From: Narcine bancroftii | Taxonomy: Eukaryota | Reading direction: 5' to 3' | Assembly (NCBI RefSeq): GCF_036971445.1 | Contig: NC_091477.1 | Span: 27,466,001 to 27,530,000 of the forward strand | DNA: 64,000 nt | In this document: positions 2,836-62,667 of the stretch, piece by piece | Numbering within the stretch: position 1 is the first letter of the stretch | Layout: each line of letters starts with the position of its first letter | The notes under the pieces: generated by a model | Databases searched by the model: none | The model's input: the letters and a program-made list of their open reading frames with translations, nothing else | What the model was told of the DNA's origin: nothing | Made by a program: the position numbers and the translations under genes

Positions 2836-3152
2836 ATACATAGAAACATAGAAGATAGGAGCAGGAGTAGGTCATTCGACCCTTCGAGCCTGCTCCGCCA
2901 TTCAACGAGATCATGGCTGATCTTAAAGGTCAGTACCCTGTCCCCGCCTTCTCTCCATAACCTTTAATACCCTTATTCTGAAGAAATAGATCTAATTCTC
3001 TCTTAAATAGATTTAATGAACCTGCCTCTACTGCCCTCTGTGGCAATGAATTCCACAGATTCACCACCCTCTGGGTCAAGAAATTCCTCCTCATCTCGGT
3101 CCTAAATGGTTTGCCTATTATCCTCAAACCATGGCCCCGGGTTCTGGATTTG
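2836..3152 (-). mobile_element. CR1-clade LINE, 5'-truncated 3' end, well preserved
   Basis: Intact ORF2 C-terminus SRTRGHGLRIIGKPFRTEMRRNFLTQRVVNLWNSLPQRAVEAGSLNLFKRELD, followed by a 3' UTR and TATGTTTC-like tail repeats. Confidence 0.92.
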
Positions 3153-3554
3153 CCAAACAAATTATGCAAATACTGGATATCTGAAAAAAAATGCAAGTCT
3201 GGCAGCATCTGTGGAAAGAAAAATATTTCTGATTAATGGCTTTTCACCAGATTTGAGGAATGGCAAAGCTTATGGGGCATATTAGCGAGAGGAAGAGTTT
3301 CTTCTGGTCAGACCAGGAGCCTTCACTGCATTGAACTTGAGACCAAATCTGAAAATTACCAAATACTCAACATGCTGGTCAGCAGCAAGCACAAATGACT
3401 CATCGCTGGGATGGAATTAATTACTAATGACAAAAAAAAATGCCATGCAGATTGAAGTTCTCAAATCAGATTGATCAAAAATAACCAATATGATAGTTAT
3501 TAACAATCGTGGCTTACTTTGCACATTGGTTACAGATTTATAAGTCAATGCAGA

Positions 3555-15081: not shown

Positions 15082-16235
15082 ATTTACTGACAGTGATTAC
15101 AGAGGATCTGCTCGATCACTCCCATTTACTGACAGTGATTAGAGGATCTGCTCGATCACTCCCATTTACTGACAGTGATTACAGAGGATCTGCTCGATCA
15201 CTCCCATTTACTGACAGTGATTACAGAGGATCTGCTCGATCACTCCCATTTACTGACAGTGATTACAGAGGATCTGCTCGATCACTCCCATTTACTGACA
15301 GTGATTAGAGGATCTGCTCGATCACTCCCATTTACTGACAGTGATTACAGAGGATCTGCTCGATCACTCCCATTTACTGACAGTGATTACAGAGGATCTG
15401 CTCGATCACTCCCATTTACTGACAGTGATTAGAGGATCTGCTAGATCACTCCCATTTACTGACAGTGATTAGAGGATCTGCTCGATCACTCCCATTTACT
15501 GACAGTGATTAGAGGATCTGCTCGATCACTCCCATTTACTGACAGTGATTACAGAGGATCTGCTCGATCACTCCCATTTACTGACAGTGATTAGAGGATC
15601 TGCTCGATCACTCCCATTTACTGACAGTGATTACAGAGGATCTGCTCGATCACTCCCATTTACTGACAGTGATTACAGAGGATCTGCTCGATCACTCCCA
15701 TTTACTGACAGTGATTAGAGGATCTGCTAGATCACTCCCATTTACTGACAGTGATTACAGAGGATCTGCTCGATCACTCCCATTTACTGACAGTGATTAC
15801 AGAGGATCTGCTCGATCACTCCCATTTACTGACAGTGATTACAGAGGATCTGCTAGATCACTCCCATTTACTGACAGTGATTACAGAGGATCTGCTAGAT
15901 CACTCCCATTTACTGACAGTGATTACAGAGGATCTGCTAGATCACTCCATTTACTGACAGTGATTACAGAGGATCTGCTCGATCACTCCCATTTACTGAC
16001 AGTGATTACAGAGGATCTGCTAGATCACTCCCATTTACTGACAGTGATTACAGAGGATCTGCTAGATCACTCCATTTACTGACAGTGATTACAGAGGATC
16101 TGCTCGATCACTCCCATTTACTGACAATGATTACAGAGGATCTGCTCGATCACTCCCATTTACTGACAGTGATTACAGGGAATCAGCTCGATCACTCCCA
16201 TTTACTGACAGTGATCTGCTAGATTACTCCCATTT
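15082..16235. repeat. Minisatellite, 42/40-bp unit, about 27-28 copies
   Basis: Unit atttactgacagtgatt(ac)agaggatctgct(c/a)gatcactccc; no spacers. Confidence 0.98.
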
Positions 16236-17344
16236 AAACACTGATGAGTTTCAAAGTTTGAAATGTCTATACTTAATAGACAAAATGGAAGTATCAGAAA
16301 TATTAAACTGCATTTGTTCAATGATGGGAAATAAAAAATGTATTATTTATGTATTAATTTTCTCAATAACAATGCCCACTTCCAAAGGCTAAATCTACGT
16401 CACATAAATGTGAATGTGAATACTCTTCAGTCAGGAAATCTTTAAAAATGTTCCAACATTTAATTGAAAGGAAAAATTGTGCACCAATAAGCAAAATGGA
16501 TAGATAGGGGAAATCTTCATAAATTATTAAATTAAATAAAGTCAGAGGCACTTAGCACTCTGTCTTACAAAGAAATATTTTAGCAATCATGTAACCAATT
16601 GAAATAACTTTAGTATAAAGGCATATTTAAGAAATATATTTTGTACCCAACCTAAAGATTAAATAATATCCCATGGGACAAACACATCCTGAACTGTCCT
16701 GTATGACAACAGCCCCTAACAAATTAGAGCTTTAATAAAAATATTTCCAACACAAAATGTTGCCAATTAATTTCATTTAAGATCACCGAGGCAAAACATG
16801 CGGCATAAGAAAATCTTAGGCACTAATGTCGTGTTTATTGTCCTCTGAAAGCATGGTCTTAAGATAAATGCATCAAGCAGACATCATCTCACTTGCTGTT
16901 CAAATGAAATAAAGTAACATGCATTTTATCACGTCAAATACTTCCAATCATGGTACACCAAAACAGTGTGTATTATGCAGTCCCATAGAACCTCCTCCAA
17001 TATTATTTCAAATCAATCATCCAGGAAGTCAAAGATTCTGTCACTGTCGAAATGCAGTACATGTACTATAAAAGTGTAAAACAATGGGGAGAAAAAAAGG
17101 AATTTATTTCTATATTAAAAAGATGTTGTCTCAAACTTGAGCTTAGCTTGGCTATAAAAGCACATGCTACCAGTTACTCATTGCTTGAATTTAAAATTAT
17201 ACTGTACTTCGCATACTGTTTTGAATGCCATAAAACATGCAATAAACAAATGCACTGGGCAAAAAAAAAAAATCACCATCTTCACACAAACAGCAAACAC
17301 AAAAATCAAGGCAATGGGCAAACAGACCATAAATGTACACATAC

Positions 17345-17368
17345 CATATATCTCTTCCCATTCTGAAT
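17345..17368 (-). CDS. Candidate 24-nt frame-preserving microexon of the ANKHD1/ANKRD17 gene (adds DSEWEEIY)
   Basis: Minus strand: long pyrimidine tract ending tcctctcctcctgaag|ATTCAGAATGGGAAGAGATATATG|gtatgt. Phase 1-1, compatible with exon 2, no stop codon. A TGCATG motif lies about 105 nt downstream. No transcript evidence available. Confidence 0.55.
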
Positions 17369-19247
17369 CTTCAGGAGGAGAGGAAAAAGAAAAAAAAAAT
17401 AAGTAGAATGACTTTGTATATGTAATCTGAATTCCTTCCTTTAGAAAATGTGTTGTGTAAAAGGAAAAAAAACCAAGGCAAGAATCTTTTTCTCACCTTT
17501 TAGAAGCACAAATATTACACTTTCACCAATGTGACATTCATCTGAAGATCACTTCCCAAACCCACCCTCCCCCTCAAAAAATTTGTAGGTCTCGAGCAGT
17601 GAAATCTACCAGCTTTGAAGATGGTATCTTTGCCGACCTACATTAATACATTATTGACATTTCATGCTGTAAATGCTCTGAGTGAAATGTATAATGCCCA
17701 AATTAATACACACACCATCTAACAAACAAATTTCTCTTAGACCAGAGATCATAATTTTAGCAAAATTTTAAGGAGGAATTTCTTCCTCGAGACCTGGATT
17801 TTGCTAACTTTTGGCCATTCCGTTCAAAGATTTTTTTTTAAAAATCATTGATCTGACCAAATTGAAAAGTTATAGTACTTGTGTAGTTTAAATAGCAGTA
17901 ATAAAGGTGAAAATTGAGTTGCAAAATTTAAATAGACATGACAGACTTAAGTGTCTGATCTTGTGCAATGGTATTTCTCAGGCAGTACTGCAGATACGAG
18001 GAACTTTAAATGAAGTTTAAATACTAATTTTTTATCCAAAGAGAAAAAAAGTCCCATCTTTTTCAACATTAGACTAAATAGTGTAAAGAGGCATTGTTTA
18101 CAAGACATGCATCTTACAGTATATGGCATATAAAATGTAAACACCAAACATATCCTTCTTCACCTCCTCAAGTCTGATCAATGAAGTTCTCCAAAAAATC
18201 ATCCACAATATATACTAACCCATTACTGTTTAAAAGAAATATAAATTTATGGAATCCAGTAAAACATTGACAGCCAATTCCTTATTTCTTTCTCAATCGT
18301 ATGAAGTCATTACAATGATATACAAACTTAGCTACATTCAAAGTTTTTAATTATTCAATATTATTTAATATGCCAGAAAAGTTAAAGGCCCCACAAATGA
18401 AATAAAAGGATGGCAATATGGAATTCTCTAACCAACCAAAAAACAATTCTTAAAAAGTGATTAGTTCATTTTTTGGTTTATTGTAACATGTGCCTGAACT
18501 TAATGTTGAAATTAAATCCACTTTTCTCAAGAGAGCATTCATTTCCTTTGAAGTCCAGTGACTCCTTACACCAAGATACCCAACATGGACCCATAAGGTG
18601 AAATCATTCTCATCAAAATTCTTTCGGGTGGATAAAATCTTGAGAAATTAAAATCAAAATCTAAGAGTTGATTTGGGGAAAAGGATTTTCAAAAAAGCTA
18701 CAGTTAATTCAAAAGATATATTCACTTCAGGCCAAGTCTATGTCAGTTAACAGCCAAACAAAAAATGCAAGTCAAAGAAAAATTATTGAATGTTTGTACA
18801 TTCACCACAGCTTGGTGGCAGCAATGCTAAAAGAAAATTACTTGAATGTTTAATGAGAGAATGAATATCAAGACACTATTCAGTAGATAAATATTTTCAA
18901 GTTTAAATGAAGTCACAACTTTTACAAAAAAAAGTTTCATTAAATTTGGCAGAACTACATCAAACATTACACGTCTACATTCTTTTCCAAAAGCTCAAAT
19001 GTTCAAGAGTTTTGACAAGCTCCTTAAAATCAAGTTTTGTAACTCAAGTTTTTGATCATGCATTATTTTCTTGTCTGGTTCAATACCCATTAGTGATGCA
19101 GGAAGGCAGTTCAATGTTCCAGGTTCCATCGTTTAGGATGTGATAGAGAGGGAGGAACAAAAAAGGGGAGGGGTGCACACACAGGACAGATGAGAGGGCT
19201 CATCCACTGAGGCAAAATGTTTGAGTTGAGGAATGGGAAAGATATGA

Positions 19248-19494: not shown

Positions 19495-22400
19495 GTATTA
19501 TAGACCACCAAATAGTCAGCAAGAATTGGAGGAGCAAATCTGCAGGGAGATACTAGACAGTAGCAGGAAACAAAGTTGTGATAGTAGGAAATTTTAACCT
19601 TCCACATATTGACCGAGTCTCTCATATTGTAGAATGACTGGATGACTTTGAATTTGTCAAATTTGTTCAGGAAAGTTTTCATATCGAGGTACCAACTAGA
19701 GAGAGTTCAATGCTGAATCAGAAATCAGTGTTGTGGAACACTTTGGGTCCAGTAATCATAATGCCATTATTTCAAGAAAATCATGGATAGGACAGGCTTG
19801 GTCCAGTAGAGATTCCAAATTGAAGGAAGGCTAATTTTGAAGAAATGACAAAGGATCTAGAAAGTTGGATTGGGCCAAGTTATTTTCTGGCAAGGATGTG
19901 CTCAGTAAGTGGAAATCCTTCATATGTGAAATTTGAGAGTACGGAGGTTGTCTATTCCTATAAGAATGAAAGGCAAAATTAACAGGCACAAGAACCTTGG
20001 TTTTTGAGGGTTATTGGGGGTGTACTTAAGAGAGGTGTGTAGCAGATATGGGCAACAAGGAGAAAATGAAGTACTTGTAGAGTAAAATAAATGCAAGAAA
20101 AAAACAAGGGAAATCAGGAAGGCTAAAAAAAAAGATGAGGTTGCTTTGGCAATGTGAAGGAAAATCTGAAGGGCTTTTTCTGGTATATTAAGAGCAAAAG
20201 GATAGCAAGGGGGAAAAAAATTGGTCCTCTTGAAGATCATTCAGCAATATATAGAGGCAGAGAAGATGGGGAAGATCTTAATTTTTTTTGCATCTGTATT
20301 TACTCAGGAAACTGGCACAGAGTCTAGGGAAATGAAACATACAAGCAGCAAGGTCATGGAACCTTTCAGATTAAAGGGGAGAAGGCATTTGCTGTCTTAA
20401 TGTGGATAAAAGTGGATATATTCCCAGGGCATGGCAAGATATTCCCTCAGATGTTGAGGGAGGCTAGTGCAGCAATTGCAGGTTCACTGGCAGATAGATT
20501 TAAAAGGTTCTTAGCCACGGTTGCTATGTTGAAGGATAGCTAATACTGTTGTGTTGTTTAAAAAAAAAATTCCAATAATAACCCAGGAAATTCTAACTTG
20601 GCAAGTTTGACATCAGAAGGCAAGTGTTCTAAGAGACTGGATATACAATTATTTGGATAGCCAGGGACTGATTAGGGAATCCCTGCATGGTAGGTCATGT
20701 TAAATAAATTATATAGAGGTTTGAGGATGTCACCAGGAAAGTTAATGAAGCAAAAGCTGTGAATGTTATCTACATGGATTTTAGTAAGACCTTTTACAAG
20801 GTCCTATATGGGAGATAAGATTAGTCAAAAAAGTTCAGTTCTTTGATATTCATGGTGAGGTAGTGAATTAGATTCTAAATGGACTTTAAGAGAGAAGCCA
20901 GAGAGTGGTCGTGGATGATTTTGTCTTTCTAATTGGAGGCCTGTGACTAGTGGTGTACCTCAAGGATTGTGCTGGGTCCATTATTGTGTGTCACCTATAA
21001 TCAATAATCTAGAAGATAATGTTGTAAATTGGATCAGCAAATTTGCAGGTGACACAAAGATTGGAGGTGTAATGGACAGCAGCAAGGTTTTCAAAACTGG
21101 CAGAGGGATCTGGACCAGCTGGAAAAATGGACTGCAAATTGGCAGATGGAATGGTAGGGCACTGAGAAGTACAGTAGAACAGAGAGATCTACAAATACAG
21201 ATACATAATTCCCTGAAAGTGGTGTCACAGGTGGATAGTGTCATAAAGTGAACTTTTGGCACAATGGCCTTCATAAATCAAAGTCTTGAGTCTAGGAGTT
21301 AGGATGTTATGGTAAGGTTGTACAAGACATTGGTGAGGCCAAATTTGGAATATTGTGTGCAGTTTTGGTCACCTAACTACAGGAAAATTATCAGTAAGAA
21401 TGAGAGAGTGCAGAGAAAATTTACTAGGACGTTGCTGGGACTTCAGGAACTGAGCTGCAGGGAAAAGTTAAACAGGTGAGGACTTTATTCCTTGGAGCAC
21501 AAAATAATGAGGGGAAATTTGATAGAGGTAAGAAAATTATCATGGAATCAGAATGTATTGTCATGAACAAGTCCTGATATTTGATGTTTTGCAGCAGCAT
21601 CAGAGTGAAAACATTCATATTATAACCATCTTACAACATTACTATAAATAAAAAAGGGTGCACAAAAAGTAAGGTAGTGTCTTGGGTTCATTGATTATTC
21701 AGGAATCTGATGGGGAAGAAGCTATCTTTGTACCGTTGAGAGCTCTTATTTAGGCTCCTGTACCCCTTCCCGATGGTAGCAGAGTGAAGAGGGCATGGCC
21801 TGGTGGTGGGGGTCTTTGAGGATAGAGGCTGCTTTTTTAATACACTGCCTTGTAGATATCCTCGATGGGAGTGGTCTGGTGCCTGTGATGTCACAGGCTG
21901 AGTTAACAACCCTCTGGAGTTTATTCTTGTCCTGAGCGTTGGCACCTCCATACCAGATAGTGATGCAACCACAGCCAGAATGCACTCCATGTTAGACCTG
22001 TAGAAGGTTTTGAGAATTTTCGGTGACATACCAAATCTCCTCAGACACCTCACAAAGTATAGCCACTGGCGAGCCGCCTTTGTGATTGCATCAACGGGAA
22101 GGCTCCAGGACAGATCCTCAGAGACGTTGACACCCAGGAATTTGAAATTCTTGACCCTCTCACTACTGAGCCCTTGATGAGAACTAGGTTGTGTTTCCCT
22201 AACTTCCTTCTTAAGTCCACATCATCTCCTTGGTTTTGAGTGCAAATCAATAGATATAGATAGAGTAAATGCAAGTAGGCTCCCCCCCACCCTCACTGAG
22301 GTTAGGTGAGGTACAAACCAGAAGACTTGGGTTAAGGGTGAAAGGGGAGAAGTTTTGGGGGAACATTTGGGGGAATTTCTTCAGTGAGTGGTGGGAGTTT

Positions 22401-23454: not shown

Positions 23455-25285
23455 AAAAAATTCTGCAGACACTTTGATTGCAGATTACACAAAAATGCTG
23501 GAGAAACTCAGCAAGTTATACCTTGTTCTTTATATGGCAAAGTTAAAGATACATGACCAACGCTTCCGGCCAAAGCCCTTCATCAAGGTATGAGAAAAAG
23601 CAGCAAAAGAATGGTTGGGGAGGAGCTCAGGCCCACAGGCATAGGTGGATATGGGTAGGAGGGCACGGAGACAAAAATGCTGATGGGGGAGGCGATACCT
23701 CGCTGAATGGAGTGGGAAGGGGGTAGAGAGCTGGAGGAAAAGAAATAGAGGGAGTCAGGGGAGGGGCCTAACAGAAACTAGAGAAGATAATGTTAATGCC
23801 ATCTGGTTGGAGAGAGGCCAGACCAAATATTAGATGTTGCTCCTCCAATTTGTAAGTGCCTCCAGTTTAGCAGTGCACGAGATCATGGGCAGACATGTCA
23901 GCATGGGAGTGGGATATGCAAGTGAAATAGTTGACGACTGGGAGGTTCCCACTATAGCAGCGGATAGAGAGGTGTTCAATGAAACGATCTCCCAAATCAG
24001 CCACAATGAGAGCTCTGGATGTAGTAGATGACTTCTAAAGATTCATAGATGAAGTGTTGTTTCACGTGGAAGGGCTGATTGGAACCCTAAATAGTGGGGA
24101 GGGAGAAAGTGTGGGCACATTTAGTACTTCCTGCTATCACGGGGGTGCATGACAAGGAAGGAATGAGTGGATGAGCAAGTTGAGGCGGGAGCAATCCCTG
24201 CAGAGGCAGAGAGGAAGATGGGTCTGGTGGTGGGATTACATGGTGGGTGGTGGAAATTGCAGAGGATAACATGTTGGATGTCTAGGTTGATGGGGTGGTA
24301 AACAAGGACAAGAGGAATATGGTCCTTATTGCATCTAGGCACAGAGGGCGCCAGGGCAGATGTGTGGGAAATGGAGAAGATGTGGGTAAGGTGAGTTAAT
24401 TGTGGCAGAAGGGGAAGGTACTTTTTGAAGAAGGAGGCTATCTCAAATGATCTGGAAGGGAAGACCTTATCCTGGGAACAGATTCTACAGAGACGGAGGT
24501 ATTTAGAGAAAGCAAAAGAAACCTTACAGAGGACAGGGTGTGAAGAGGTAATTGTGAGAGTTGTTGGGTTTGTATAAAACATCAGCAGAGTTTGTCTCCT
24601 TAGATGGGGACAGAGAGAGAGAGATTGAGAAAGGGGTGTGTTGCCAGAGAGATGGACCATGAATTTGGGGTTGGGGTAAAAGTTAGCAGCCAAGTGAATA
24701 GAGTTGACAAGCTCATATGGGTGCATGAGGTAGCACCAATATAGTTGTCAATGTCATGGAGGAAGAGTTGAGGAACTTTGCCTGTGTAGGCTTGTCACAT
24801 GGATTACTCTTCGTAGACATCAAAAAAGCAGGCATAGCTGAGACCCAATGGCTACTCCTTTGGCTTAGAAAAAGTAGGCTGAGTCAAAGGAGGTTATTAA
24901 GGATGAGAACAAGTTTTGCCACGTGGAGATGGTGAAAACACTGAAGTCTTTGAAACCTTTGATATGGGGGATGGAGGTGTTTTGAGATTGGACGTCCATA
25001 GTGTAAATGATGTGATAGAGTTCAAAGAATTGGAAGTTCTTGAAGAGACAGAGGGCAATATCAGGTACTGCAGATGTAGGTAGAAATAGATTAGACTGAG
25101 GGGGGGGGGGGCTTGATGCTCTTTGGTGGGGTTCTGTTGAAGGGGCGAGGAGGTGTCTGAGAGTTATTGTCTGGCTTCACCAGACCACAACTGCACCTCC
25201 CTTGTCTGCAGGTTTGATTGTGAGGAGAGGATTGGTGCTAAGAGAGTGGAGGGCAGAGCATTTCGAGGGGGAGAGATTGGAATAA
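23455..25285 (-). mobile_element. Penelope-like retroelement, decayed (RT plus GIY-YIG endonuclease)
   Basis: TIKPADKGGAVVVW, RT motif LFLHDIDNYIG, FSKYLRLCRICS, IPLVLVYHP and GIY-YIG remnant VIYYIQSSHCG...LGDRFIEHL. Confidence 0.88.
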
Positions 25286-25287
25286 GT

Positions 25288-28200
25288 GGACTTCCGGTTA
25301 GGCAGTGGTATGGAGTAGACGTCCTTACCATAGCTCCACTCCTTAAGTATACATTGTCCCATTTATTTTTCTTGAAACTTTCAAATTGATGTCGAATTGC
25401 ATATCCTATATTTGAAATGGATACAAGAGGTGGAAAGACTGCTAAAAGTGGGAAAAACGGAAAGAAACAAGAAACTCCAATTATTCCACTGGCAAACCCA
25501 ACTGTTGCAAGTTCCTCCAATGTATTTGAACAAATTAAAGAATCTATTGATGCAGGATTTAAACATCTAGATGAAAGGCTTTTGCCACTGGAAAACCAAT
25601 TTGCACAGATCTGTGATTCCATAGAAAAACAAGGTGAGCGTTTGACTTTAGCAGAATCTGCTTTAAAGGAAATGAACGAATGGGTCTGCCACCTGGAAAA
25701 CAATAATGAGAGGCTAATGACTACAATTATTGATATGGAAAGTTGAAGTTGGTGACAAAATCTGCATGTTGAGGGCTTGGCTGAAGATACTGAGTCTAGT
25801 GTGCTTACTAAATGGCCTGATTTGTTAGCATTGGTGTTTGGAGATGTGTTATTTCCAACACCACCTGAGTTTGATAGAGCAAAAACCACCATCATCAAAT
25901 TAAGGAACTGCTGATTCATGAAGCCTCTTGTAAAGGTACCTTGCAATACCAAGGCAAAACATTTAGAATCAAGATTATTTCCTCCCCATTTCTTTCTCAT
26001 CTTTTACCCTTTCTGTTACTGTTTGTTTTTGTTACTTTCTTAGCTTTTCTGATTGTATTTATTTGCTTTTATTGCTACATTTCCTTGAGTTCTTCTCTGC
26101 ATCACGTGACCCCCCCCCCCCCCCATCAATCATGGAATATTCTCCTGAAGTTATGGAAAAACAGGCCACCTACAGAAAAGTTATGTCTGGGGTTGAAGCC
26201 TTCCCTGCTGTTTCCAGCACGTCTTAGAATCCTTCACTCCAACAGATGTAAGAAATGGTTTGTTTCAGTGGAAAACGCTGGGTAGTTCATCCACAATCTA
26301 TCCATTCCGGAATGACATTTATTTTTCTGTTGAATGACAACTTTGAAACGAGGATTGAATTTAATATGTTAAAGGTTCAGTCATTTGTTTTTAGAGTTTT
26401 TACAGAGAAAGCATTGTTATTATGAGTTGAAATAATCTGGAGTGGCTAGGAAAAGAATTCAACCCATAAAAGTATTTTTTTATATTTAATGTATTCAAAC
26501 GAAACATGGCTTATTTTGGTTAGCTATGACATCTGCAGGGGCGTTGTTATTGTTTTGCTTCTGAATAAGAACATCTAATCAAAACTGGGAGATAGTTGCT
26601 TCTTAGAATTAATTAGCATGCTGACAGCTTTTCCATCAGCCTTAGGGGGTGGGACTGGGGAAGATCAGGGAAGGGATCATGGGTGTTTTGCATTACCATG
26701 GTAGTTAATTGTTTAGATCTTTCAGATTCCATCTTGTATATTCTATGGTTTAGTAAGGCCATCTGCAGGCTGGAGGTCGTTGTACATATTGTACAAACTT
26801 GGCTTTGCACATGTGCATTGGGATTTCTGAAACTAGTTTTACTTTTAGTGTATATTTTCTATAATTGAGTGATCATGGCTAATCCTACTAAGTTCCTGAG
26901 TTGGAATGTGAGAGGTTTAAATCATCAAGTAATATGAAGTGGCTTTGCATTTAAGACAATTTAAAGCTGCAATTATTTTTTTTTTAAAACAAGGGAAGTG
27001 ATGTTTCCCGCCTGATTTCATGGGAGAAGGGGCAGCAATATCACTCTTTCTTTCAGGCTAAATCACCTCACTGACAAAAGACAAAGGAGGAAAAACCCAA
27101 CACCCAACCCCAACCAATCAATTTTCCCTTGCAACCGCTGCAACCGTGTCTGCCTGTCCCGCATCGGACTTGTCAGCCACAAACGAGCCTGCAGCTGACG
27201 TGGAAATTTACCCCCTCCATAAATCTTCGTCCGCGAAGCCAAGCCAAAGAGGTGTATCAATTCTGATTAATCAGAATATTCTTTAGTATACAATGTTGTT
27301 TCGTATTCTGTCTTTTTCTTATTGTTTCAAGGAAATTACATGATAAAATTGAAGTTTCTGCAAATGTTTATACTCCCAATGTTGATGATCTGGATTTTTA
27401 AAAATTTTACTTCCTTGCTATATTTAGGTTTATCCTCGCTTATTCTTGGTGGGGATTTCAACTGTTGGTTGGACCCTCTCCTGGATCACTCATCTTCTAA
27501 CCCAGCTACATTAAAAGATTCTGCCCTATTTTATTTTTTAAATTCTTTTTATCGATCTATTCATTTATTTAACATTTGGGTTATGGCATCTCAGGTGTTT
27601 GTCGTTTCTTTTATCCTACCAATAGAGTACTAATTTTTCCTCCTATTCATCACATTTACTCATGAATTGATTATTTTTATTGATAATCATTTAATTTCAT
27701 AAATATCATAGTATTGTAACATCTGATGATGCCCCTGTAACAATGTCACTGAACCTTCCTAAATTTCCTCAGGATAAAAGAGAATGGTGTTTTAATTCAG
27801 TGTAATTATCAGATAAGGACTTTGTTAAATTTATGGAAGAACAGATAAGTCTTCTTTTTTGATACTAATCTCGTATCCAAGTCCTCTAGTTTACTTATAT
27901 GCATACTTTGAAGGTTTTTCGTGGGGGCAAAATATTTCATAAGGAAAGATCTGAGGTAATTAAACAAATTAAACAATTAGATCAACAATATGCTCAAACT
28001 AAAAACCCAGATGTAAACAAAAACAGATAGATCTTCTCTCAGCATACCCAGCCGAATGCCAACTTTTACAATATAAAAGTTTTAATTTTACATTCAATGT
28101 GATAAATCTGGTAAGTTTTTGGCCAACCAATTGAGAGAATTTGGTGCTAAACAACACATCAGAAGTTCGTAAGAATAATATTATTATGACTTCAGTAGTA

Positions 28201-29295
28201 AATCACAAAAATCTGTAGACACAGTTGTAGAAATTTTTAAAAAATGCTGGAGAAGCTCTCAGCAAGTCAAACAGTGTCTTTCCTTTATGTAGCAATGGTA
28301 ACGATACATAACCAACGTTTCAGGCTTGAACCCTTCATCAAAGAATGAGAATATGCCAGCGAGTGTCCGAACAAAAGAGTGTGGGGGACAAAGGCAAGAG
28401 GTGATAAGATGGAGAAAGGAGGAAGGGGACAGCAGCAATGAGGGAGACTATTTGGAGACAAACAATATACTTAAAGGATTCTACTCCAAATTATATTTTT
28501 CTGAATATACAAATGACACTAATTTGATTAAATATCAAATCTTAGATTGATTGAAAATCCCCAAGAGTTCTTTAGACAGTCAAATCAAACTGGATGAATC
28601 TATTTCGCATGAGCTGCTATTTCCTCATTATAATCTGGAAAGGCCCCTGAATCCCATGGGCTCCCTTCGGAATTTTTCAAATTATTTTAACGGCTCACAC
28701 TTTTCGTAAAGGTGGTGTTTACTTATTTGTTTGAACTGGATAAACTTCCAGACTCATTAAATGAATCTTGCTTAGCTTTAATTGTGAAGAAAGGTAAAGA
28801 CACAACCGAATGTTCCTCTTATAGACCAATCTCCCTATTGAAGTCAATGCTAAAATTCTGGCTAAAATTTTAGCCAAGAGGATAGAAAATATTTTACCAT
28901 CAGTTATTTCTGAAAATCAAAAGGGGTCTATTTTAATATAGGTCACTTAATGAATATTATATATTTGCTTTCAGGTAAAACTCTTGAGTTTATTTTTTCA
29001 TTGGATGCTGAAAAAGCTTTTGATCAGAGAGAATGGACAAATGTTTACAACCCTTGAAAATTTTAATTTTGGTTCTGATTTTATTGCATGGATTAAACTA
29101 TGGCATTCACAACCTTCTGCCACAATTCTTACTAATTTACAACAATCTCAACCTTCTAATTTGCAATGTGGCACTCGTCAAGGATGCCCATTAAGCTCTT
29201 TATTATTTGATCTAGCAATAGAACCATTGGCAATTGCATTTCGTGAGTGAAGAACATCTTGAGGATATGGTAAAAAGGGATTGAAAACAAGGTCT
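25288..29295 (+). mobile_element. L1-clade LINE, 5'-complete and 3'-truncated, decayed (ORF1, endonuclease, RT)
   Basis: 5' end ggacttccgg. Coiled-coil ORF1 from 25417. ORF2 starts 26875 with MANPTKFLSWNVRGLN, then ILGGDFNCWLDP, YRPISLL, LDAEKAFD and GTRQGCPLSSLLFDLAIEPLA. Confidence 0.92.
27063..27250 (+). mobile_element. RTE-clade LINE 3' end nested in L1 ORF2
   Basis: Nearly identical to 54523-54710; C2H2-like CNRCNRVCLSRIGLVSHKRAC. Confidence 0.92.
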
Positions 29296-29939
29296 AAGTG
29301 TTCAAAGACCCCAACAGAAACTGCTGCTAAATGAACAGAATTCAACTCGCAACTGAATCAACATTTCGTCAAGATTTGCTCGTTTTTTTTATGTTTTGCA
29401 AAGTCACCTTGACTGTGATAACTTTTTCAGACCTACAAGGAACAACTAAGAACATACTGCCTTGTATAGAACAATACAACATAGCTGGTTCAAACTCAAC
29501 GTCACGTAGCACTGGTACTATATTAGAGAAAAAATAAGAAAAATCACAAAAATGTGCATTTGAAGCATAAATCATCTCTAACTTGTTGTTGCCAGTGATC
29601 CAACATAACTGCAAACTGAATCAGACTCCCTTCAAGTTAAAAGTACTAAATCTAATTGAATTCTGAATATTTCTTTAAAATTCAAATGACCACCTTATAC
29701 TTTAAGGAAATCTAGTATGCTGGAATCAAAATTCTATTTTGCATTATATTCCTTCAAAATTCTAATGAGGAAACTACACATTTTCAAATTTTGAAATCCT
29801 TTGCCTTTTTTTCCCCAAAACAAGGTGGGGAAGACAATTTTACCAAATCTCAATTAACTATTTAAAATCAATAGGCTGATTGGTGTTTGGATTACCTTGG
29901 TAATTACCTTGCTGATTGGTGTTTGGATTGGTGAATTAC

Positions 29940-30161
29940 CTGCAAGTTTATAAACTACTGAATTGAAGCCATGCTTACAAAACTTAATGGAATAGCTGGA
30001 ATTGATACCAAGATGGGAGTCAAAGTAGCTGCTGATATTGTACCAGAGTTGAAGCAGCCAACACGTCTTGAAGCCAATGCCATTAAATTCAGTTCTAACA
30101 GTGATCTTTCCTGGGTTGTGGTATTTAGTGCCGAGGAACCCGATTTTACTAATTGCTTTTC
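29940..30161 (-). other. Candidate 222-nt symmetric (phase 1-1) cassette exon
   Basis: tttcag|GAAAAGCAATT...AAACTTGCAG|gtaatt. Open in the frame set by exon 2 (GKAISKIGFLG...VVYKLA). No homolog recognised. Confidence 0.25.
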
Positions 30162-30199
30162 CTGAAACCCCAGCACAAAGAATCCTAAGAAAGGAAATA

Positions 30200-30800
30200 G
30201 TCTATAGGCTATTTCATGTCAGGCCTCTGCCTGGAGGCCGGCTACAGGAGCAGATGGAAGACATAAAACTTACCTTTCAGACAGCAGTCCTAAAAGGCTG
30301 CTCCAGCATTGCATTCATACTAAGAGATGTCTCATACCACCCCCCAGATCCAATGGAGGCAGGGCGATTGGTGCCATAGCACCACCTGTCATATATATGC
30401 AGCAGAAAAATGGCGGTCTTCCCTACCCATAATGCCCCATGCAGCTGGAACCACTGTGTATCCCAGAACACCACATTTTGAGCTGCAGAGAGGAATCCCG
30501 AAGGCCGAAGCGGCCGGTGAGACTGTCACAGCCGTCCCCTGCCATCCTGACGGCTCCCGTCTGCCACCCCTGCCTTAAGGGGGTCATGAAAGGAGAGGGG
30601 TGAGTGGGAAGATAGGTTGCAGGATAACGGCATCATCAGCCTGCCCCTAACCAGTCGCTTGCAGCGGCTGTATGTTCAGGTCAGGCAGCAGAGCGATTAT
30701 CCTTCCCTGAGAATGGTTGGAATCGGCACCTTGGAGTTGGCCAAGCCACAGAGATGCAAGTCTTTAGGCACCAAGGCGAAGAATCTCCACCTTTACAGAC
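30200..30800. mobile_element. GC-richer non-autonomous DNA element fragment, probably PIF/Harbinger-related
   Basis: Shares the tacccataat...ctggaa core with the elements at 39050-39680 and 60146-60906. Confidence 0.4.
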
Positions 30801-32209: not shown

Positions 32210-33830
32210 AATCACCGCTACTTATTGTTGGGGGCTGGTGGCGGGATGTCGGTAGCATCAGACTGTTCAAATTGAGGACCAACCCACAGACCAACTTGCT
32301 CACAATCTGGCAGGTATCAAATCTTTGTGCCTTGTGATTGCCCTCAAAATCTGGCAGACCTAGAGTCATATCTAGGTCCATGAGCCAACAGGCAACCCTC
32401 TCATAAAATGGGCAGTCCTTCATGGCGCCCATTAATTGTTTTGCAATCTCCTCAGCCCTGATTGAGAGAAGCTTCTGCACCTCCCGATCCCAAATCATCA
32501 CCATTATCTTCAGATCACTACTACTTCTCACTCCTGCCATGCAAGGACCACTGTACCTGTCTGCATCACCTCTCCAAACTGATCAACTGTCCTGCCAGGA
32601 GGTTGCATGCAACAAACGTCATCAGTGCATCACTAATGGGACCCAGCAAACCAGGTCACCCGTTCACACTGTGGCAAATTCAAAACAGATCGGCTCTGAT
32701 ACTACCTCCCTGGGCGGTTAAGTCCCAGGTCAAAATGGTTCGGGAATGGTCAAAATGGTTCGGGAATGGTCAAAATGGTTCGGGAATGGTCAAAATGGTT
32801 CGGGAATGGTCAAAATGGTTCGGGAATGGTCAAAATGGTTCGGGAATGGTCAAAATGGTTCGGGAATGGTCAAAATGGTTCGGGAATGGTCAAAATGGTT
32901 CGGGAATGGTCAAAATGGTTCGGGAATGGTCAAAATGGTTCGGGAATGGTCAAAATGGTTCGGGAATGGTCAAAATGGTTCGGGAATGGTCAAAATGGTT
33001 CGGGAATGGTCAAAATGGTTCGGGAATGGTCAAAATGGTTCGGGAATGGTCAAAATGGTTCGGGAATGGTCAAAATGGTTCGGGAATGGTCAAAATGGTT
33101 CGGGAATGGTCAAAATGGTTCGGGAATGGTCAAAATGGTTCGGGAATGGTCAAAATGGTTCGGGAATGGTCAAAATGGTTCGGGAATGGTCAAAATGGTT
33201 CGGGAATGGTCAAAATGGTTCGGGAATGGTCAAAATGGTTCGGGAATGGTCAAAATGGTTCGGGAATGGTCAAAATGGTTCGGGAATGGTCAAAATGGTT
33301 CGGGAATGGTCAAAATGGTTCGGGAATGGTCAAAATGGTTCGGGAATGGTCAAAATGGTTCGGGAATGGTCAAAATGGTTCGGGAATGGTCAAAATGGTT
33401 CGGGAATGGTCAAAATGGTTCGGGAATGGTCAAAATGGTTCGGGAATGGTCAAAATGGTTCGGGAATGGTCAAAATGGTTCGGGAATGGTCAAAATGGTT
33501 CGGGAATGGTCAAAATGGTTCGGGAATGGTCAAAATGGTTCGGGAATGGTCAAAATGGTTCGGGAATGGTCAAAATGGTTCGGGAATGGTCAAAATGGTT
33601 CGGGAATGGTCAAAATGGTTCGGGAATGGTCAAAATGGTTCGGGAATGGTCAAAATGGTTCGGGAATGGTCAAAATGGTTCGGGAATGGTCAAAATGGTT
33701 CGGGAATGGTCAAAATGGTTCGGGAATGGTCAAAATGGTTCGGGAATGGTCAAAATGGTTCGGGAATGGTCAAAATGGTTCGGGAATGTTCACACTGGTA
33801 GGTGAATTGCTAATTTGGTGTTTAATTCCC
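32210..33830 (-). mobile_element. PIF/Harbinger remnant encoding part of a Myb/SANT-like (trihelix) protein; hosts the 20-bp array
   Basis: ORF 32208-32540 contains WDREVQKLLSIRAEEIAKQLMGAMKDCPFYERVACWL, resembling the trihelix domain of Harbinger ORF1. Harbinger-like gttcacactg motifs flank the array. Confidence 0.65.
32728..33787. repeat. Perfect 20-bp tandem array, 53 copies
   Basis: (ggtcaaaatggttcgggaat)53; no variant unit seen. Confidence 0.99.
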
Positions 33831-34204
33831 ATTTTCAAACAGGAGTATGAAAGATATAGAAAAGTACAGAGGCCCTTTTGACCCACTTCATTTCGAGACC
33901 ATAGCCCCTTTCACATTGGCTATGTGAAATTGATGGGTGAAGTGTTTACAAAAACCAGTAGCACTGTTCATCCTAGACCAAGGAAAAGCGGTTCTGCACA
34001 CCTATTCTCACTGCCTATTCAGTAGCGCAGAGCAAAGCAGTGCCTATCTTCCAGCGGTGATGTCACATCAAGTGATAGGGTTCCTGCTCTCCCTGAATTC
34101 CATGTGGCAGAGAAACTCCTCCAGGAGTGCTCCATGCATACAGCCCTTTCATTATGCCATGGCACACAAGGGCATTAAAGGAAAAGGCGTCTAGTTCCTT
34201 GCCT

Positions 34205-37200
34205 CCCCATCGCTCTCTCCCCCCTTCCCCATCGCTCTCTCCCCCCTTCCCCATCGCTCTCTCCCCCCTTCCCCATCGCTCTCTCCCCCCTTCCCCATCG
34301 CTCTCTCCCCCCTTCCCCATCGCTCTCTCCCCCCTTCCCCATCGCTCTCTCCCCCCTTCCCCATCGCTCTCTCCCCCCTTCCCCATCGCTCTCTCCCCCC
34401 TTCCCCATCGCTCTCTCCCCCTTCCCCATCGCTCTCTCCCCCTTCCCCATCGCTCTCTCCCCCTTCCCCATCGCTCTCTCCCCCTTCCCCATCGCTCTCT
34501 CCCCCTTCCCCATCGCTCTCTCCCCCCTTCCCCATCGCTCTCTCCCCCCTTCCCCATCGCTCTCTCCCCCCTTCCCCATCGCTCTCTCCCCCCTTCCCCA
34601 TCGCTCTCTCCCCCCTTCCCCATCGCTCTCTCCCCCCTTCCCCATCGCTCTCTCCCCCCTTCCCCATCGCTCTCTCCCCCCTTCCCCATCGCTCTCTCCC
34701 CCCTTCCCCATCGCTCTCTCCCCCCTTCCCCATCGCTCTCTCCCCCCTTCCCCATCGCTCTCTCCCCCCTTCCCCATCGCTCTCTCCCCCCTTCCCCATC
34801 GCTCTCTCCCCCCTTCCCCATCGCTCTCTCCCCCCTTCCCCATCGCTCTCTCCCCCCTTCCCCATCGCTCTCTCCCCCCTTCCCCATCGCTCTCTCCCCC
34901 CTTCCCCATCGCTCTCTCCCCCCTTCCCCATCGCTCTCTCCCCCCTTCCCCATCGCTCTCTCCCCCCTTCCCCATCGCTCTCTCCCCCCTTCCCCATCGC
35001 TCTCTCCCCCCTTCCCCATCGCTCTCTCCCCCCTTCCCCATCGCTCTCTCCCCCCTTCCCCATCGCTCTCTCCCCCCTTCCCCATCGCTCTCTCCCCCCT
35101 TCCCCATCGCTCTCTCCCCCCTTCCCCATCGCTCTCTCCCCCCTTCCCCATCGCTCTCTCCCCCCTTCCCCATCGCTCTCTCCCCCCTTCCCCATCGCTC
35201 TCTCCCCCCTTCCCCATCGCTCTCTCCCCCCTTCCCCATCGCTCTCTCCCCCCTTCCCCATCGCTCTCTCCCCCCTTCCCCATCGCTCTCTCCCCCCTTC
35301 CCCATCGCTCTCTCCCCCCTTCCCCATCGCTCTCTCCCCCCTTCCCCATCGCTCTCTCCCCCCTTCCCCATCGCTCTCTCCCCCCTTCCCCATCGCTCTC
35401 TCCCCCCTTCCCCATCGCTCTCTCCCCCCTTCCCCATCGCTCTCTCCCCCCTTCCCCATCGCTCTCTCCCCCCTTCCCCATCGCTCTCTCCCCCCTTCCC
35501 CATCGCTCTCTCCCCCCTTCCCCATCGCTCTCTCCCCCCTTCCCCATCGCTCTCTCCCCCCTTCCCCATCGCTCTCTCCCCCCTTCCCCATCGCTCTCTC
35601 CCCCCTTCCCCATCGCTCTCTCCCCCCTTCCCCATCGCTCTCTCCCCCCTTCCCCATCGCTCTCTCCCCCCTTCCCCATCGCTCTCTCCCCCCTTCCCCA
35701 TCGCTCTCTCCCCCCTTCCCCATCGCTCTCTCCCCCCTTCCCCATCGCTCTCTCCCCCCTTCCCCATCGCTCTCTCCCCCCTTCCCCATCGCTCTCTCCC
35801 CCCTTCCCCATCGCTCTCTCCCCCCTTCCCCATCGCTCTCTCCCCCCTTCCCCATCGCTCTCTCCCCCCTTCCCCATCGCTCTCTCCCCCCTTCCCCATC
35901 GCTCTCTCCCCCCTTCCCCATCGCTCTCTCCCCCCTTCCCCATCGCTCTCTCCCCCCTTCCCCATCGCTCTCTCCCCCCTTCCCCATCGCTCTCTCCCCC
36001 CTTCCCCATCGCTCTCTCCCCCCTTCCCCATCGCTCTCTCCCCCCTTCCCCATCGCTCACTCCCCCCTTCCCCATCGCTCACTCCCCCCTTCCCCATCGC
36101 TCACTCCCCCCTTCCCCATCGCTCACTCCCCCCTTCCCCATCGCTCACTCCCCCCTTCCCCATCGCTCACTCCCCCCTTCCCCATCGCTCTCTCCCCCCT
36201 TCCCCATCGCTCTCTCCCCCCTTCCCCATCGCTCTCTCCCCCCTTCCCCATCGCTCTCTCCCCCCTTCCCCATCGCTCTCTCCCCCCTTCCCCATCGCTC
36301 TCTCCCCCCTTCCCCATCGCTCTCTCCCCCCTTCCCCATCGCTCTCTCCCCCCTTCCCCATCGCTCTCTCCCCCCTTCCCCATCGCTCTCTCCCCCCTTC
36401 CCCATCGCTCTCTCCCCCCTTCCCCATCGCTCTCTCCCCCCTTCCCCATCGCTCTCTCCCCCCTTCCCCATCGCTCTCTCCCCCCTTCCCCATCGCTCTC
36501 TCCCCCCTTCCCCATCGCTCTCTCCCCCCTTCCCCATCGCTCTCTCCCCCCTTCCCCATCGCTCTCTCCCCCCTTCCCCATCGCTCTCTCCCCCCTTCCC
36601 CATCGCTCTCTCCCCCCTTCCCCATCGCTCTCTCCCCCCTTCCCCATCGCTCTCTCCCCCCTTCCCCATCGCTCTCTCCCCCCTTCCCCATCGCTCTCTC
36701 CCCCCTTCCCCATCGCTCTCTCCCCCCTTCCCCATCGCTCTCTCCCCCCTTCCCCATCGCTCTCTCCCCCCTTCCCCATCGCTCTCTCCCCCCTTCCCCA
36801 TCGCTCTCTCCCCCCTTCCCCATCGCTCTCTCCCCCCTTCCCCATCGCTCTCTCCCCCCTTCCCCATCGCTCTCTCCCCCCTTCCCCATCGCTCTCTCCC
36901 CCCTTCCCCATCGCTCTCTCCCCCCTTCCCCATCGCTCTCTCCCCCCTTCCCCATCGCTCTCTCCCCCCTTCCCCATCGCTCTCTCCCCCCTTCCCCATC
37001 GCTCTCTCCCCCCTTCCCCATCGCTCTCTCCCCCCTTCCCCATCGCTCTCTCCCCCCTTCCCCATCGCTCTCTCCCCCCTTCCCCATCGCTCTCTCCCCC
37101 CTTCCCCATCGCTCTCTCCCCCCTTCCCCATCGCTCTCTCCCCCCTTCCCCATCGCTCTCTCCCCCCTTCCCCATCGCTCTCTCCCCCCTTCCCCATCGC

Positions 37201-38612
37201 TCTCTCCCCCCTTCCCCATCGCTCTCTCCCCCCTTCCCCATCGCTCTCTCCCCCCTTCCCCATCGCTCTCTCCCCCCTTCCCCATCGCTCTCTCCCCCCT
37301 TCCCCATCGCTCTCTCCCCCCTTCCCCATCGCTCTCTCCCCCCTTCCCCATCGCTCTCTCCCCCCTTCCCCATCGCTCTCTCCCCCCTTCCCCATCGCTC
37401 TCTCCCCCCTTCCCCATCGCTCTCTCCCCCCTTCCCCATCGCTCTCTCCCCCCTTCCCCATCGCTCTCTCCCCCCTTCCCCATCGCTCTCTCCCCCCTTC
37501 CCCATCGCTCTCTCCCCCCTTCCCCATCGCTCTCTCCCCCCTTCCCCATCGCTCTCTCCCCCCTTCCCCATCGCTCTCTCCCCCCTTCCCCATCGCTCTC
37601 TCCCCCCTTCCCCATCGCTCTCTCCCCCCTTCCCCATCGCTCTCTCCCCCCTTCCCCATCGCTCTCTCCCCCCTTCCCCATCGCTCTCTCCCCCCTCCCC
37701 ATCGCTCTCTCCCCCCTCCCCCATCGCTCTCTCCCCCTCCCCATCGCTCTCTCCCTCCTCCCCATCGCTCTCTCCCCTTCCCCATCGCTCTCTCTCCCCT
37801 TCCCATCGCTCTCTCCCCCCTTCCCCATCGCTCTCTCCCCCCTTCCCCATCGCTCTCTCCCCCCTTCCCCATCGCTCTCTCCCCCCTTCCCCATCGCTCT
37901 CTCCCCCCTTCCCCATCGCTCTCTCCCCCCTTCCCCATCGCTCTCTCCCCCCTTCCCCATCGCTCTCTCCCCCCTTCCCCATCGCTCTCTCCCCCCTTCC
38001 CCATCGCTCTCTCCCCCCTTCCCCATCGCTCTCTCCCCCCTTCCCCATCGCTCTCTCCCCCTTCCCCATCGCTCTCTCCCCCTTCCCCATCGCTCTCTCC
38101 CCCTTCCCCATCGCTCTCTCCCCCTTCCCCATCGCTCTCTCCCCCCTTCCCCATCGCTCTCTCCCCCCTTCCCCATCGCTCTCTCCCCCCTCCCCCATCG
38201 CTCTCTCCCCCCTCCCCCATCGCTCTCTCCCCCCTCCCCATCGCTCTCTCCCTCCTCCCCATCGCTCTCTCCCCTTCCCCATCTCTCTCTCTCCCCTTCC
38301 CCATCTCTCTCTCTCCCCCTCCCCATCTCTCTCTCTCCCCCTCCCCATCTCTCTCTCTCCCCCTCCCCATCTCTCTCTCTCCCCCTCCCCATCTCTCTCT
38401 CTCCCCCTCCCCATCTCTCTCTCCCCCTCCCCATCTCTCTCTCTCCCCCTCCCCATCTCTCTCTCTCCCCCTCCCCATCTCTCTCTCTCCCCCTCCCCAT
38501 CTCTCTCTCTCCCCCTCCCCATCTCTCTCTCTCCCCTTCCCCATCTCTCTCCCCTTCCCCATCTCTCTCCCCTTCCCCATCTCTCTCCCCTTCCCCATCT
38601 CTCTCCCCTTCC

Positions 38613-38643
<31 letters not shown>

Positions 38644-50939: not shown

Positions 50940-51093
50940 CTGCTGCTTCAAGCAAGGCTTCCAATCTGGCCTGTGTTTCTGGGTCCACTGTTCGTAGATC
51001 TGTTCCATCTGCAGCACTTGACAAAAGTAATTCAGAGGCTGTTTTAAGCATTGGATTATCCAGATCTTCCTGGTCCAAAATAAATGATTCAAC
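50940..51093 (-). CDS. ANKHD1: Internal coding exon (exon 2, 154 bp, phase 0 to 1) of an ankyrin repeat and KH domain protein, ANKHD1/ANKRD17 (MASK) family
   Basis: Minus strand reads tttttcag|GTT GAA TCA...GCA GCA G|gtattt and translates to VESFILDQEDLDNPMLKTASELLLSSAADGTDLRTVDPETQARLEALLEAA(G). This matches the recalled exon 2 peptide of ANKHD1 and ANKRD17. DQEDLDNP and KT..E favour ANKHD1, but ANKRD17 is not excluded. Missed by the ORF track because it is short. Confidence 0.9.
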
Positions 51094-52636: not shown

Positions 52637-54251
52637 AATGTCATGGTGTTGCAGGGATAAATCGGAATTAAGGCATCTCTTAATTATCTCTGATATCATT
52701 CTTATTTGCTTCTACTTTTGTCTTCTTGTCTCATTTTTAAAAAAAAATATAAACATGGCAAATAGTAAGTGTTATGGGAGCCATCAACAGCTGAATATTT
52801 ACAGCCAAATTTACACCTCCACTATCATTCCTATTGATCACACATACAATCAGCAAAACAAAATGGACAACCATTATTTGATGTCCATCACAGTGCCCAA
52901 GTTAACTGTGGGGCACAGAAAACAAATTTATTTTTACCATCACAAAAACATGGAACTAATATGGTAAATTTCAACTCCATGCAAATTTCATACATTACAT
53001 TATAGTATTATATCAAGTCACAACCAAATCGTTCTTGACAGGAGTCTGGAAAAAAATATGACGTGTTTTCCTTGGACATAAAAAACACAAGTTTTCCATT
53101 TTATTTTGAATAACAAGACTTCAATGTTCTAAAACATTGTCAATTCTCTGAAATGTAAAATGTATTCAAGTCAAAATGAATACTTCACAATCTTTGCAAA
53201 TTAAGATACACGGGTATCCATCTACAAAATCAGGATTTAACAATGGAAAAGATTTGGCTCCAGAGATCTTCAAAATATTGGTATAAAGTCATATTTACGG
53301 TTGTACTGTCTTTAATTTCTCATGGAACAAATGCAGTGAGCAGTTAAAACACAAATGATGAAGTGATCACTCAACAAAAGTTAACCATCCTCCATGGGAT
53401 ATACCACATTATCACAAGGTCCAGAAAATCAGCAAGACTAGGCAAAATGAACAGGTTGTCACCACTGTAACCTGTAACATAAATCCACAAATACTTCTCA
53501 TCTACCTAACAGAATTAGGAATATGATAGAACATTTTCTCATTAAAGCAGCTCCAAATATATACATTTTTAAAATCTTGACTACATCTATCTTATCCACT
53601 CCATCCAACCAATGCTGTTGGCTTTAATCTGTTCAATGGATATTAAACTATTCCACCTTAAAGAGTTCTTTGATAATAGTTCCCAAATCTGAGACCTCTC
53701 CCACCAAAAAAAATATGGCAGCTAGAATGCAGGAACACCCATATCTCAAGTTGCAGAGTATCCTAACATTGGTATATATTGCAATTTCTCACCTATCTAA
53801 ACAAAACTAGAACTCAATATTAACATATTTTAACTGTTTTCTGACAACCTTGGCCTGCTCTTGTGCCTGAGCAGGGTTGCAATCATGTGGCCAGCTTGCA
53901 GTTCATCAAGAAATCATCCAAGCCAACTACCTGCTCAACCATCCTGAATCCTGACAAGGATTATCCATGCCCAGATAGAGGGACCATACAGTGTCCTCTG
54001 CCTTGCTGGAGACCTTTCCAGATTGATGGGCTCCAGATGGGCTGGAGTACATCTTGAACAGTGAAGATTGCCTTTTAATCTTAAACTGTGATCAAATTAA
54101 ATAAATAAAGTTATTGTTTAACAAAATGTTGGACTATGGTTAAGGGCCATAATTCATGGTCTTCCTGACATTGCACACAAATTAAAATGTCTTAAAGCCC
54201 CAAGAACTATTCACTTTGAGTTTATAAGTGAATAAATGACGGATTAATGTC

Positions 54252-54717
54252 CACGCTGCTGCTGAAGATCCAGCTGCGCTGGATGGGTCACGTCTCCAGA
54301 ATGGAGGACCATCGCCTTCCCAAGATCGTATTATATGGCGAGCTCTCCACTGGCCACCGTGACAGAGGTGCACCAAAGAAAAGGTACAAGGACTGCCTAA
54401 AGAAATCTCTTGGTGCCTGCCACATTGACCACCGCCAGTGGGCTGATAACGCCTCAAACCGTGCATCTTGGCGCCTCACAGTTTGGCGGGCAGCAGCCTC
54501 CTTTGAAGAAGACCGCAGAGCCCACCTCACTGACAAAAGGCAAAGGAGGAAAAACCCAACACCCAACCCCAACCAACCAATTTTCCCTTGCAACCGCTGC
54601 AATCGTGTCTGCCTGTCCCGCATCAGACTGGTCAGCCACAAACGAGCCTGCAGCTGACGTGGACTTTTTACCCCCTCCATAAATCTTCGTCCGCGAAGCC
54701 AAGCCAAAGAAAGAAGA
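54252..54717 (+). mobile_element. Young RTE-clade LINE, 5'-truncated
   Basis: Uninterrupted ORF C-terminus LLLKIQLRWMGHVSRMEDHRLPKIVLYGEL...CNRCNRVCLSRIRLVSHKRACS*, CpG retained, short AAGA/AAG tail. Confidence 0.95.
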
Positions 54718-61172: not shown

Positions 61173-61679
61173 GTATTACAGATGAAATGCGAATCAAATA
61201 ACAATTGTAAAATGTCTTTCTCGCCCCTGGGTTCTCCTTTGATGCTTGAAAGTACTTGCATTGTACATGGTCAAATTATGTATCTCAATTACATGATAAA
61301 ATTTTGGTTTGGTCGTGTTCTGTGAGAGATAAATGACCAGGAAGAAAGCTCTTGAACATTTATGACTAGGCATATCTAAATATCTGTTTATTGAAATATT
61401 CAAAAGACAAAACTGCAGAAAGTAAAGTTTGCTTTTCTGCATTGCAGCCTGAATCCTGAAGTGGAAGTTAAGACTCTCATAATTTACTGGGAATTGAAAA
61501 TTGCAGGTTGGGTTTACTGTGCAGGCCAACTTGTCTCTCATTTTCATATCTGTATATCCAATAGCTGAAGTAAGTCAGATGTCAGCATACTTGAGTTGAA
61601 AGTCTAGAATAATGCACTAAAGATGCATGGTGTTTTTGAATGGGATTGCAAACTGATGGTCTGCAAAGAATTTGATTTA

Positions 61680-62665: not shown

Positions 62666-62667
62666 GC

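Follow-up and report, generated by a model that had tools for sequence, protein, structure and literature searches.

A conserved 24-nt cassette microexon in ANKHD1 of sharks and rays

Downstream UGCAUG sites usually activate the inclusion of an exon in neurons and muscle, and exons of the SRRM3/4 type are usually shared with bony vertebrates. In the targets of SRRM3/4 the UGC motif is found in 79% and 74% of two dependent classes and is not strictly needed, and the pyrimidine tract lies at some distance from the AG, which leaves room for the UGC enhancer (excerpts of bioRxiv 10.1101/2024.09.17.613571). Alternative splicing at the exon 2/3 junction of human ANKHD1 is represented by isoform 2, which has an 11-residue deletion at position 152 (excerpt of PMC10454556). 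Here, we describe a microexon at this same junction, analysed within a 64,000-nt stretch of DNA (the window; G000:C21:27466001-27530000) of a 3.3-Gb genome. The exon is real, apparently lineage-restricted and invariant in its peptide, and constitutes a conserved cassette microexon. The isoform is already present in RefSeq as predicted models, and the kind of system is a known one. No paper describing the exon was found; supplements and splicing databases such as VastDB may list it, and ANKHD1 is not mentioned in the main text of bioRxiv 10.64898/2026.09.05.749416, whose exon tables include elephant shark.

The microexon and its host gene

The microexon is located at window positions 17368-17345 on the minus strand and has a length of 24 nt and phase 1-1. 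It lies in intron 2 of ANKHD1, which is 60,003 nt long and of phase 1, at distances of 33.6 kb and 26.4 kb from its neighbour exons. When the minus strand was re-read, the U/C tract ending in AAG, the 24 nt and the GTATGT donor of the original prediction were all recovered, and the insert was confirmed to be stop-free and in phase. The exon 2/exon 3 junction, in which the exon 2 donor is of phase 1 (CAG/GTATTT), was checked and is the one seen in elasmobranch proteins; inclusion yields LLEAA-DSEWEEIY-GIGKL. The acceptor region (17369..17411, minus strand) is a 43-nt AG-free zone with a pure pyrimidine tract (26 of 26 pyrimidines at -30 to -5), a weak GAAG end at 17369 and no UGC; the preceding AG is 43 nt upstream and the nearest TGC/UGC motifs lie at -112 and then -140. 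The donor (17339..17344, minus strand) reads ATG/GTATGT and scored 8.3 with a matrix of the gene's own sites, for which the 25 gene donors span 4.1-11.6. The predicted inner AG, 6 nt into the exon, was present as described, as were the TGCATG at 17241-17236 and the lack of a nearby UGC. The 18-nt in-frame form (EWEEIY) that the inner AG had been expected to give was rejected: it occurs in 0 of 50 elasmobranch proteins, and the inner acceptor scored -0.2 versus 1.3 for the main one.

Intron 2 contains 788 in-frame, stop-free AG..GT stretches of ≤27 nt. The microexon, which itself has AG/GT borders, is within this length and keeps the frame, ranks 21st among them by a crude matrix for which 25 splice sites of the gene itself were used. 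It is the sole candidate that combines a tract of ≥85% pyrimidines with a donor scoring no lower than the 20th percentile for the gene's sites, by a filter that was chosen after the exon had been seen. The case from sequence only is modest, and protein and DNA evidence from outside lifts it above chance.

Exon 2, the constitutive upstream exon with the phase-1 donor (50940..51093, minus strand), was located by protein match. Exon 1 lies 34.7 kb above it; exon 3 falls outside the window, 9,064 nt past its first base. A tblastn search with the skate protein P0278 against the window and 20 neighbouring stretches gave 30 segments of 79-100% identity, most above 92%, and most exons were 92-100% identical to Leucoraja ANKHD1. 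Because a 50-residue stretch of exon 2 is identical in all 50 elasmobranch proteins, 49 of which are named ANKHD1 by NCBI, the gene is, as judged from its sequence, ANKHD1 of a shark or ray and not ANKRD17; of the double label ANKHD1/ANKRD17 given originally, the first half stands and the second does not. No ANKRD17 copy was found in this genome with three exon queries, which returned one locus only and belong to a kind of search that can miss; the absent paralogue may reflect lineage loss, an assembly gap or a search miss.

Several other features of the locus were observed. The exon 3 acceptor (L002:937-990) consists of a pyrimidine tract, then CTACTAAC, a possible branch-point or QKI-like element, and then a purine-rich spacer to the AG. 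It has the lowest score among the gene's 25 acceptors, and two TGCATG lie 90-150 nt upstream of it. Within exon 3 of this genome, an AG 33 nt from the start would give an 11-residue-short form, as in human and fish. The window also holds long, near-perfect, intronic tandem arrays at 15082-16215 (42-mer x27), 32728-33792 (20-mer x53), 34204-38625 (22-mer x203) and 54946-56016 (25-mer x43), and broken reading frames at about 2900-3240, 20900-22300, 24100-30200, 54200-54700 and 61600-63200, which presumably resemble LINE-type retroelement fragments.

Isoforms and phylogenetic range

Fifty elasmobranch ANKHD1 proteins were collected from an exon-2-only search (best 120 of 1335), in whose scoring an insert behind exon 2 carries no cost, and from cluster members (15 listed; clusters of 178 and 51). 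The junction peptide for which the original prediction had asked a protein search was matched letter by letter in 26 of the 50, and the other 24 read LLEAA-GIGKL; these are counts of database models and do not equal an inclusion level. The expectation of a frame-preserving alternative microexon upstream of the ankyrin repeats was thereby borne out, with the exact peptide shared by sharks and rays. Inclusion was present in 11 of 19 species, among them the sharks Heptranchias, Pristiophorus, Scyliorhinus, Mustelus, Chiloscyllium and Stegostoma and the batoids Leucoraja, Rhinoraja and Hemitrygon; example entries are Leucoraja erinacea XP_055499081.1, Heptranchias perlo XP_067852398.1 and Mustelus asterias XP_078087109.1. 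Both forms were present in five species (Chiloscyllium plagiosum, C. punctatum, Heptranchias, Rhinoraja and Stegostoma) as predicted isoforms, which are models and not reads. The skip form alone was found, among the records fetched, in 8 of the 19 species: Amblyraja, Carcharodon, Hemiscyllium, Heterodontus (including isoform X1), Hypanus, two Mobula and Pristis. The database records are XP models predicted by RefSeq, in which one annotation may seed another; such models are normally built on transcript alignments. Taken together, the microexon is almost certainly a real alternative exon.

Sequencing runs were searched with a 761-nt downstream exon stretch, which returned 18 runs guessed to be RNA, none of them RNA on record and none with a tissue label. 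One such run (X1) gave a single 168-nt contig in the downstream intron (17130-17300), which lies outside the exon and is so uninformative on the junction. A separate small splice variant near the ankyrin start was seen in Scyliorhinus canicula (P0258, P0259 and P0437), in which the exon 3/4 junction reads ADKFSRSL instead of ADNRSL.

Outside the elasmobranch set, neither the insert nor anything similar was present in 503 junction-spanning ANKHD1/ANKRD17/Mask proteins (685 fetched). This redundant set includes the multi-isoform RefSeq sets of gar, bichir, paddlefish, sturgeon, salmon and other salmonids, pike, electric eel and mormyrids, as well as some turtles, birds and rodents, many ANKRD17 and few invertebrate Mask proteins. 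Of the non-elasmobranch proteins fetched, 120 came from a list biased against inserts (best 120 of 1488); all of these were of the reptile or bird ANKRD17 type, with the highest scores going to proteins without an insert, so that they tell little about its absence. A search of representatives (150 best of 231 matches) gave no further insert. Conservation of the exon in bony vertebrates was not found (0 of 503), and the exon looks elasmobranch-restricted. At the same junction, 38 of the 503 proteins are without 11 residues.

It is also conceivable, and in our view unlikely, that the exon is not an elasmobranch invention and instead is an older, vertebrate-wide exon that is unannotated or was lost in bony vertebrates. 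Microexons often go unannotated, the bony-vertebrate side was judged from proteins alone, and the lists fetched name no holocephalan, lamprey, coelacanth or lungfish record; the insert is, however, absent from all 503 proteins, multi-isoform bony-vertebrate sets included. As an exon of sharks and rays, whose lineages split roughly 250-300 million years ago, it offers a clean case of a lineage-restricted microexon with eight residues unchanged across both groups.

Predicted effect on the protein

The insert takes up residues 114-121 of P0278, and the first ankyrin-type Pfam match, at 165, lies some 45 residues further on. From invertebrates to mammals the surrounding helix-loop-helix stretch hardly varies. 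A search of solved structures with P0042 gave no match. When the skip form was modelled (salmon P0031, mean pLDDT 52), the site came directly after a helix (130-142) and before a glycine-rich, low-confidence loop and a further helix (159-191). In the model of the insert form the helix continues through the eight residues, with a pLDDT below 50 over the whole region. The hydrophobic moment of the insert (226 degrees) has the same direction as that of the preceding helix (229 degrees), with W, I and Y extending the L/L/L/A face and the acids pointing outward. The insert is predicted to extend this conserved amphipathic helix by about two turns, and the chance that it acts mainly as a helix extension appears to be close to, if a little short of, even. 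For human ANKHD1, cross-linking was better with fragments that contained the N-terminal 194 residues than with fragments lacking them (excerpt of PMC6606961), which would make a dimer or partner surface of the N-terminal region the likeliest thing to be changed. The NLS has been placed after the second ankyrin block (PMC6861002, PMC8572007), and the excerpts of these two papers give no function for the N-terminal stretch.

The insert may, with a similarly low probability as the older exon above, represent a short linear motif, in which WEEI would be an LC3/GABARAP-interacting region (LIR) and EEIY, together with the G of exon 3, a Src-family site, which would connect ANKHD1 to autophagy or endosomes in a switchable manner. 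The hexapeptide SEWEEI conforms to the xLIR expression, with a [WFY]xx[LIV] core and acidic neighbours (PMC5119064, in excerpt), and no other W-type match occurs in the 2545 residues of the protein; yet the motif candidates were noticed after the fact, and the expression is of low specificity according to its authors (same excerpt) and has six matches in the ankyrin region too. EEIYG matches five residues of the Src-optimal peptide AEEEIYGEFAKKK (PMC4300553, in excerpt). Of 29,216 stop-free 24-nt stretches of intron 2, 36 would encode a W-type xLIR and three an EEIYG-like site; all eight residues are invariant, however, which exceeds what either motif requires. In the low-confidence models the insert lies at a helix end beside a flexible loop. 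A LIR binds in an extended form, whereas the insert keeps the helical register of the segment before it. On the functional side, fly Mask/ANKHD1 has been tied to autophagy and mitophagy (excerpt of the review PMC10232775), and Mask/ANKHD1 to early endosomes (PMC6606961, in part). When the insert fragment (P0278 103-135) was modelled as a complex with an LC3-like protein (metagenome locus L038), the scores were 0.07 and 0.02 versus a mark of 0.34; with controls not folded, this was uninformative. The most far-reaching version of the motif reading, in which the elasmobranch microexon would install a phospho-switchable ATG8-binding motif (WEEI plus EEIYG) and tie the YAP-shuttling, endosome-shaping ANKHD1 to autophagy membranes in one tissue, is quite improbable; if true, it would be a direct link between ANKHD1 and autophagy membranes that other vertebrates lack. 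An intronless LC3-like copy in this genome (L025:1480-1899, G000:C9) is interrupted by a stop at codon 7, differs at many positions and is likely a processed pseudogene; because of the early stop it was set aside as a partner for the complex prediction.

Flanking conservation and proposed regulation

Conservation of the DNA around the exon was determined by aligning sequencing-run contigs to 16500-18600 at the 80% identity level. Contigs from genome-size runs of three other organisms (X20, X23 and X24) revealed a conserved island of 432 nt (17117..17548, minus strand), which includes 180 nt upstream and 228 nt downstream of the exon and is UG-rich downstream. They also cover part or all of a second conserved block (16788..17033, minus strand) with a second TGCATG (16923-16918, +422). 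The upstream flank (17565-18600) aligned only in one 106-nt piece and in bits of 37-41 nt, which are of chance size. In X24 the island is covered by a single contig that differs at 36 letters; the 28 of these that are listed all fall in the other 288 nt and none in the core (17272-17415), which contains the microexon and both splice sites. X20 and X23 likewise have no substitution in the core among the differences listed, and further differences that could fall in the exon number up to 4 (X24), 6 (X23) and 25 (X20). The sole indel listed in the core is a 4-nt change in a T-run (X23, X24). The exon and its flanks are thus conserved in contigs of three other organisms and in 26 identical peptides, and the 24 nt and splice sites, whose lack of conservation would have spoken against the original prediction, carry no substitution among the differences listed for X24. 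X20 gave a further match of 36 nt across the exon; with five differences, no pyrimidine tract and the size of a chance bit, it was discarded.

The second block includes a possible 3-nt microexon (16895-16893, minus strand; CAG/CAA/GTGAGA), which has a TGCATG 28 nt upstream and the best summed splice score of the 788 intron 2 candidates. Against it, the loose end of X24 has GC at the donor, and the extra residue occurs in 0 of 50 elasmobranch proteins.

Downstream of the 24-nt exon, an RBFOX-type TGCATG is located at +104 (17236..17241, minus strand) and a GCATG at +178 (17167-17163, minus strand), both without substitution among the differences listed (28 further rows in all). Conserved (U)GCAUG motifs are found at +104, +178 and +422, and the 550 nt downstream contain two TGCATG and two further GCATG in conserved blocks. 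Within 250 nt, observed counts versus the intron expectation were 1 versus 0.13 for TGCATG, 2 versus 0.22 for GCATG, 5 versus 2.6 for YGCY and 11 versus 5.4 for TGT. Because TGCATG is common in intron 2 (31 copies, with two in 48 of 1192 450-nt windows), the weight rests on the conservation of the motif. Inclusion of the microexon is probably tissue-regulated, and the downstream RBFOX-type motifs suggest inclusion in neural or muscle tissue; for RBFOX-type control as such, the odds appear slightly favourable.

A neural microexon of the SRRM3/4 programme without the usual UGC would share the length of 24 nt, the preserved frame, the strong donor and the CU-rich tract, and the motif is after all missing from a part of both dependent classes (bioRxiv 10.1101/2024.09.17.613571, in excerpt). 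At this exon, however, the layout of a UGC between branch point and AG with a set-back tract was not found: no UGC occurs within 111 nt, and the tract reaches -5 and leaves no spacer before the AG. Furthermore, the conserved intron extends further downstream than upstream, and no bony-vertebrate protein among the 503 had the insert; we regard this assignment as improbable. An RNA gene or structure was rejected for the island (no RNA family and no unusual fold, z -1.39), and this result, together with identical borders and peptide in 11 species and a flat conservation core centred on the exon and its splice sites, makes it very improbable that a conserved intronic element was mis-annotated as an exon or is included as noise, a reading in whose favour stands that inclusion is supported by predicted models alone.

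We favour a tissue-regulated cassette microexon through which shark and ray ANKHD1 gains DSEWEEIY at the exon 2/3 junction. It would be skipped by default, because the exon is tiny, its GAAG acceptor weak and its neighbours distant (33.6 kb and 26.4 kb), and would be activated in neural or muscle tissues by factors on the conserved downstream block, with its RBFOX-type enhancers. The included form would have a lengthened helix in an N-terminal region that likely aids dimerisation or partner binding of ANKHD1. This proposal as a whole, from tissue-regulated inclusion through RBFOX-type enhancers to a helix extension that alters an interaction surface, is reasonably likely.

Comparison with known systems

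In its motifs the exon resembles RBFOX-activated cassette exons, with UGCAUG downstream of it inside conserved intron blocks. With the SRRM3/4-dependent neural microexons of vertebrates it shares a length of ≤27 nt, a multiple of three, a strong donor and conserved flanks, but the shark exon has neither the UGC nor the spacer, has downstream UGCAUG instead and is unseen in bony vertebrates. Compared with LIR/AIM and Src motifs, the insert fits xLIR and EEIYG five residues of the Src-optimal peptide, whereas its context looks helical; both are candidate motifs. The elasmobranch ANKHD1 isoforms in RefSeq have the identical peptide at the identical junction, but are uncurated, with no description, tissue or function attached in the data seen. 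Human ANKHD1 isoform 2 is likewise spliced alternatively at this junction; there an inner acceptor of exon 3 is used and residues are lost, whereas the shark exon adds eight. The same junction is thus altered in opposite directions, with eight residues added in sharks and eleven removed in humans and ray-finned fish, and the three natural forms (skip, +8 and -11) constitute a ready test of the role of the N-terminal region of ANKHD1/Mask.
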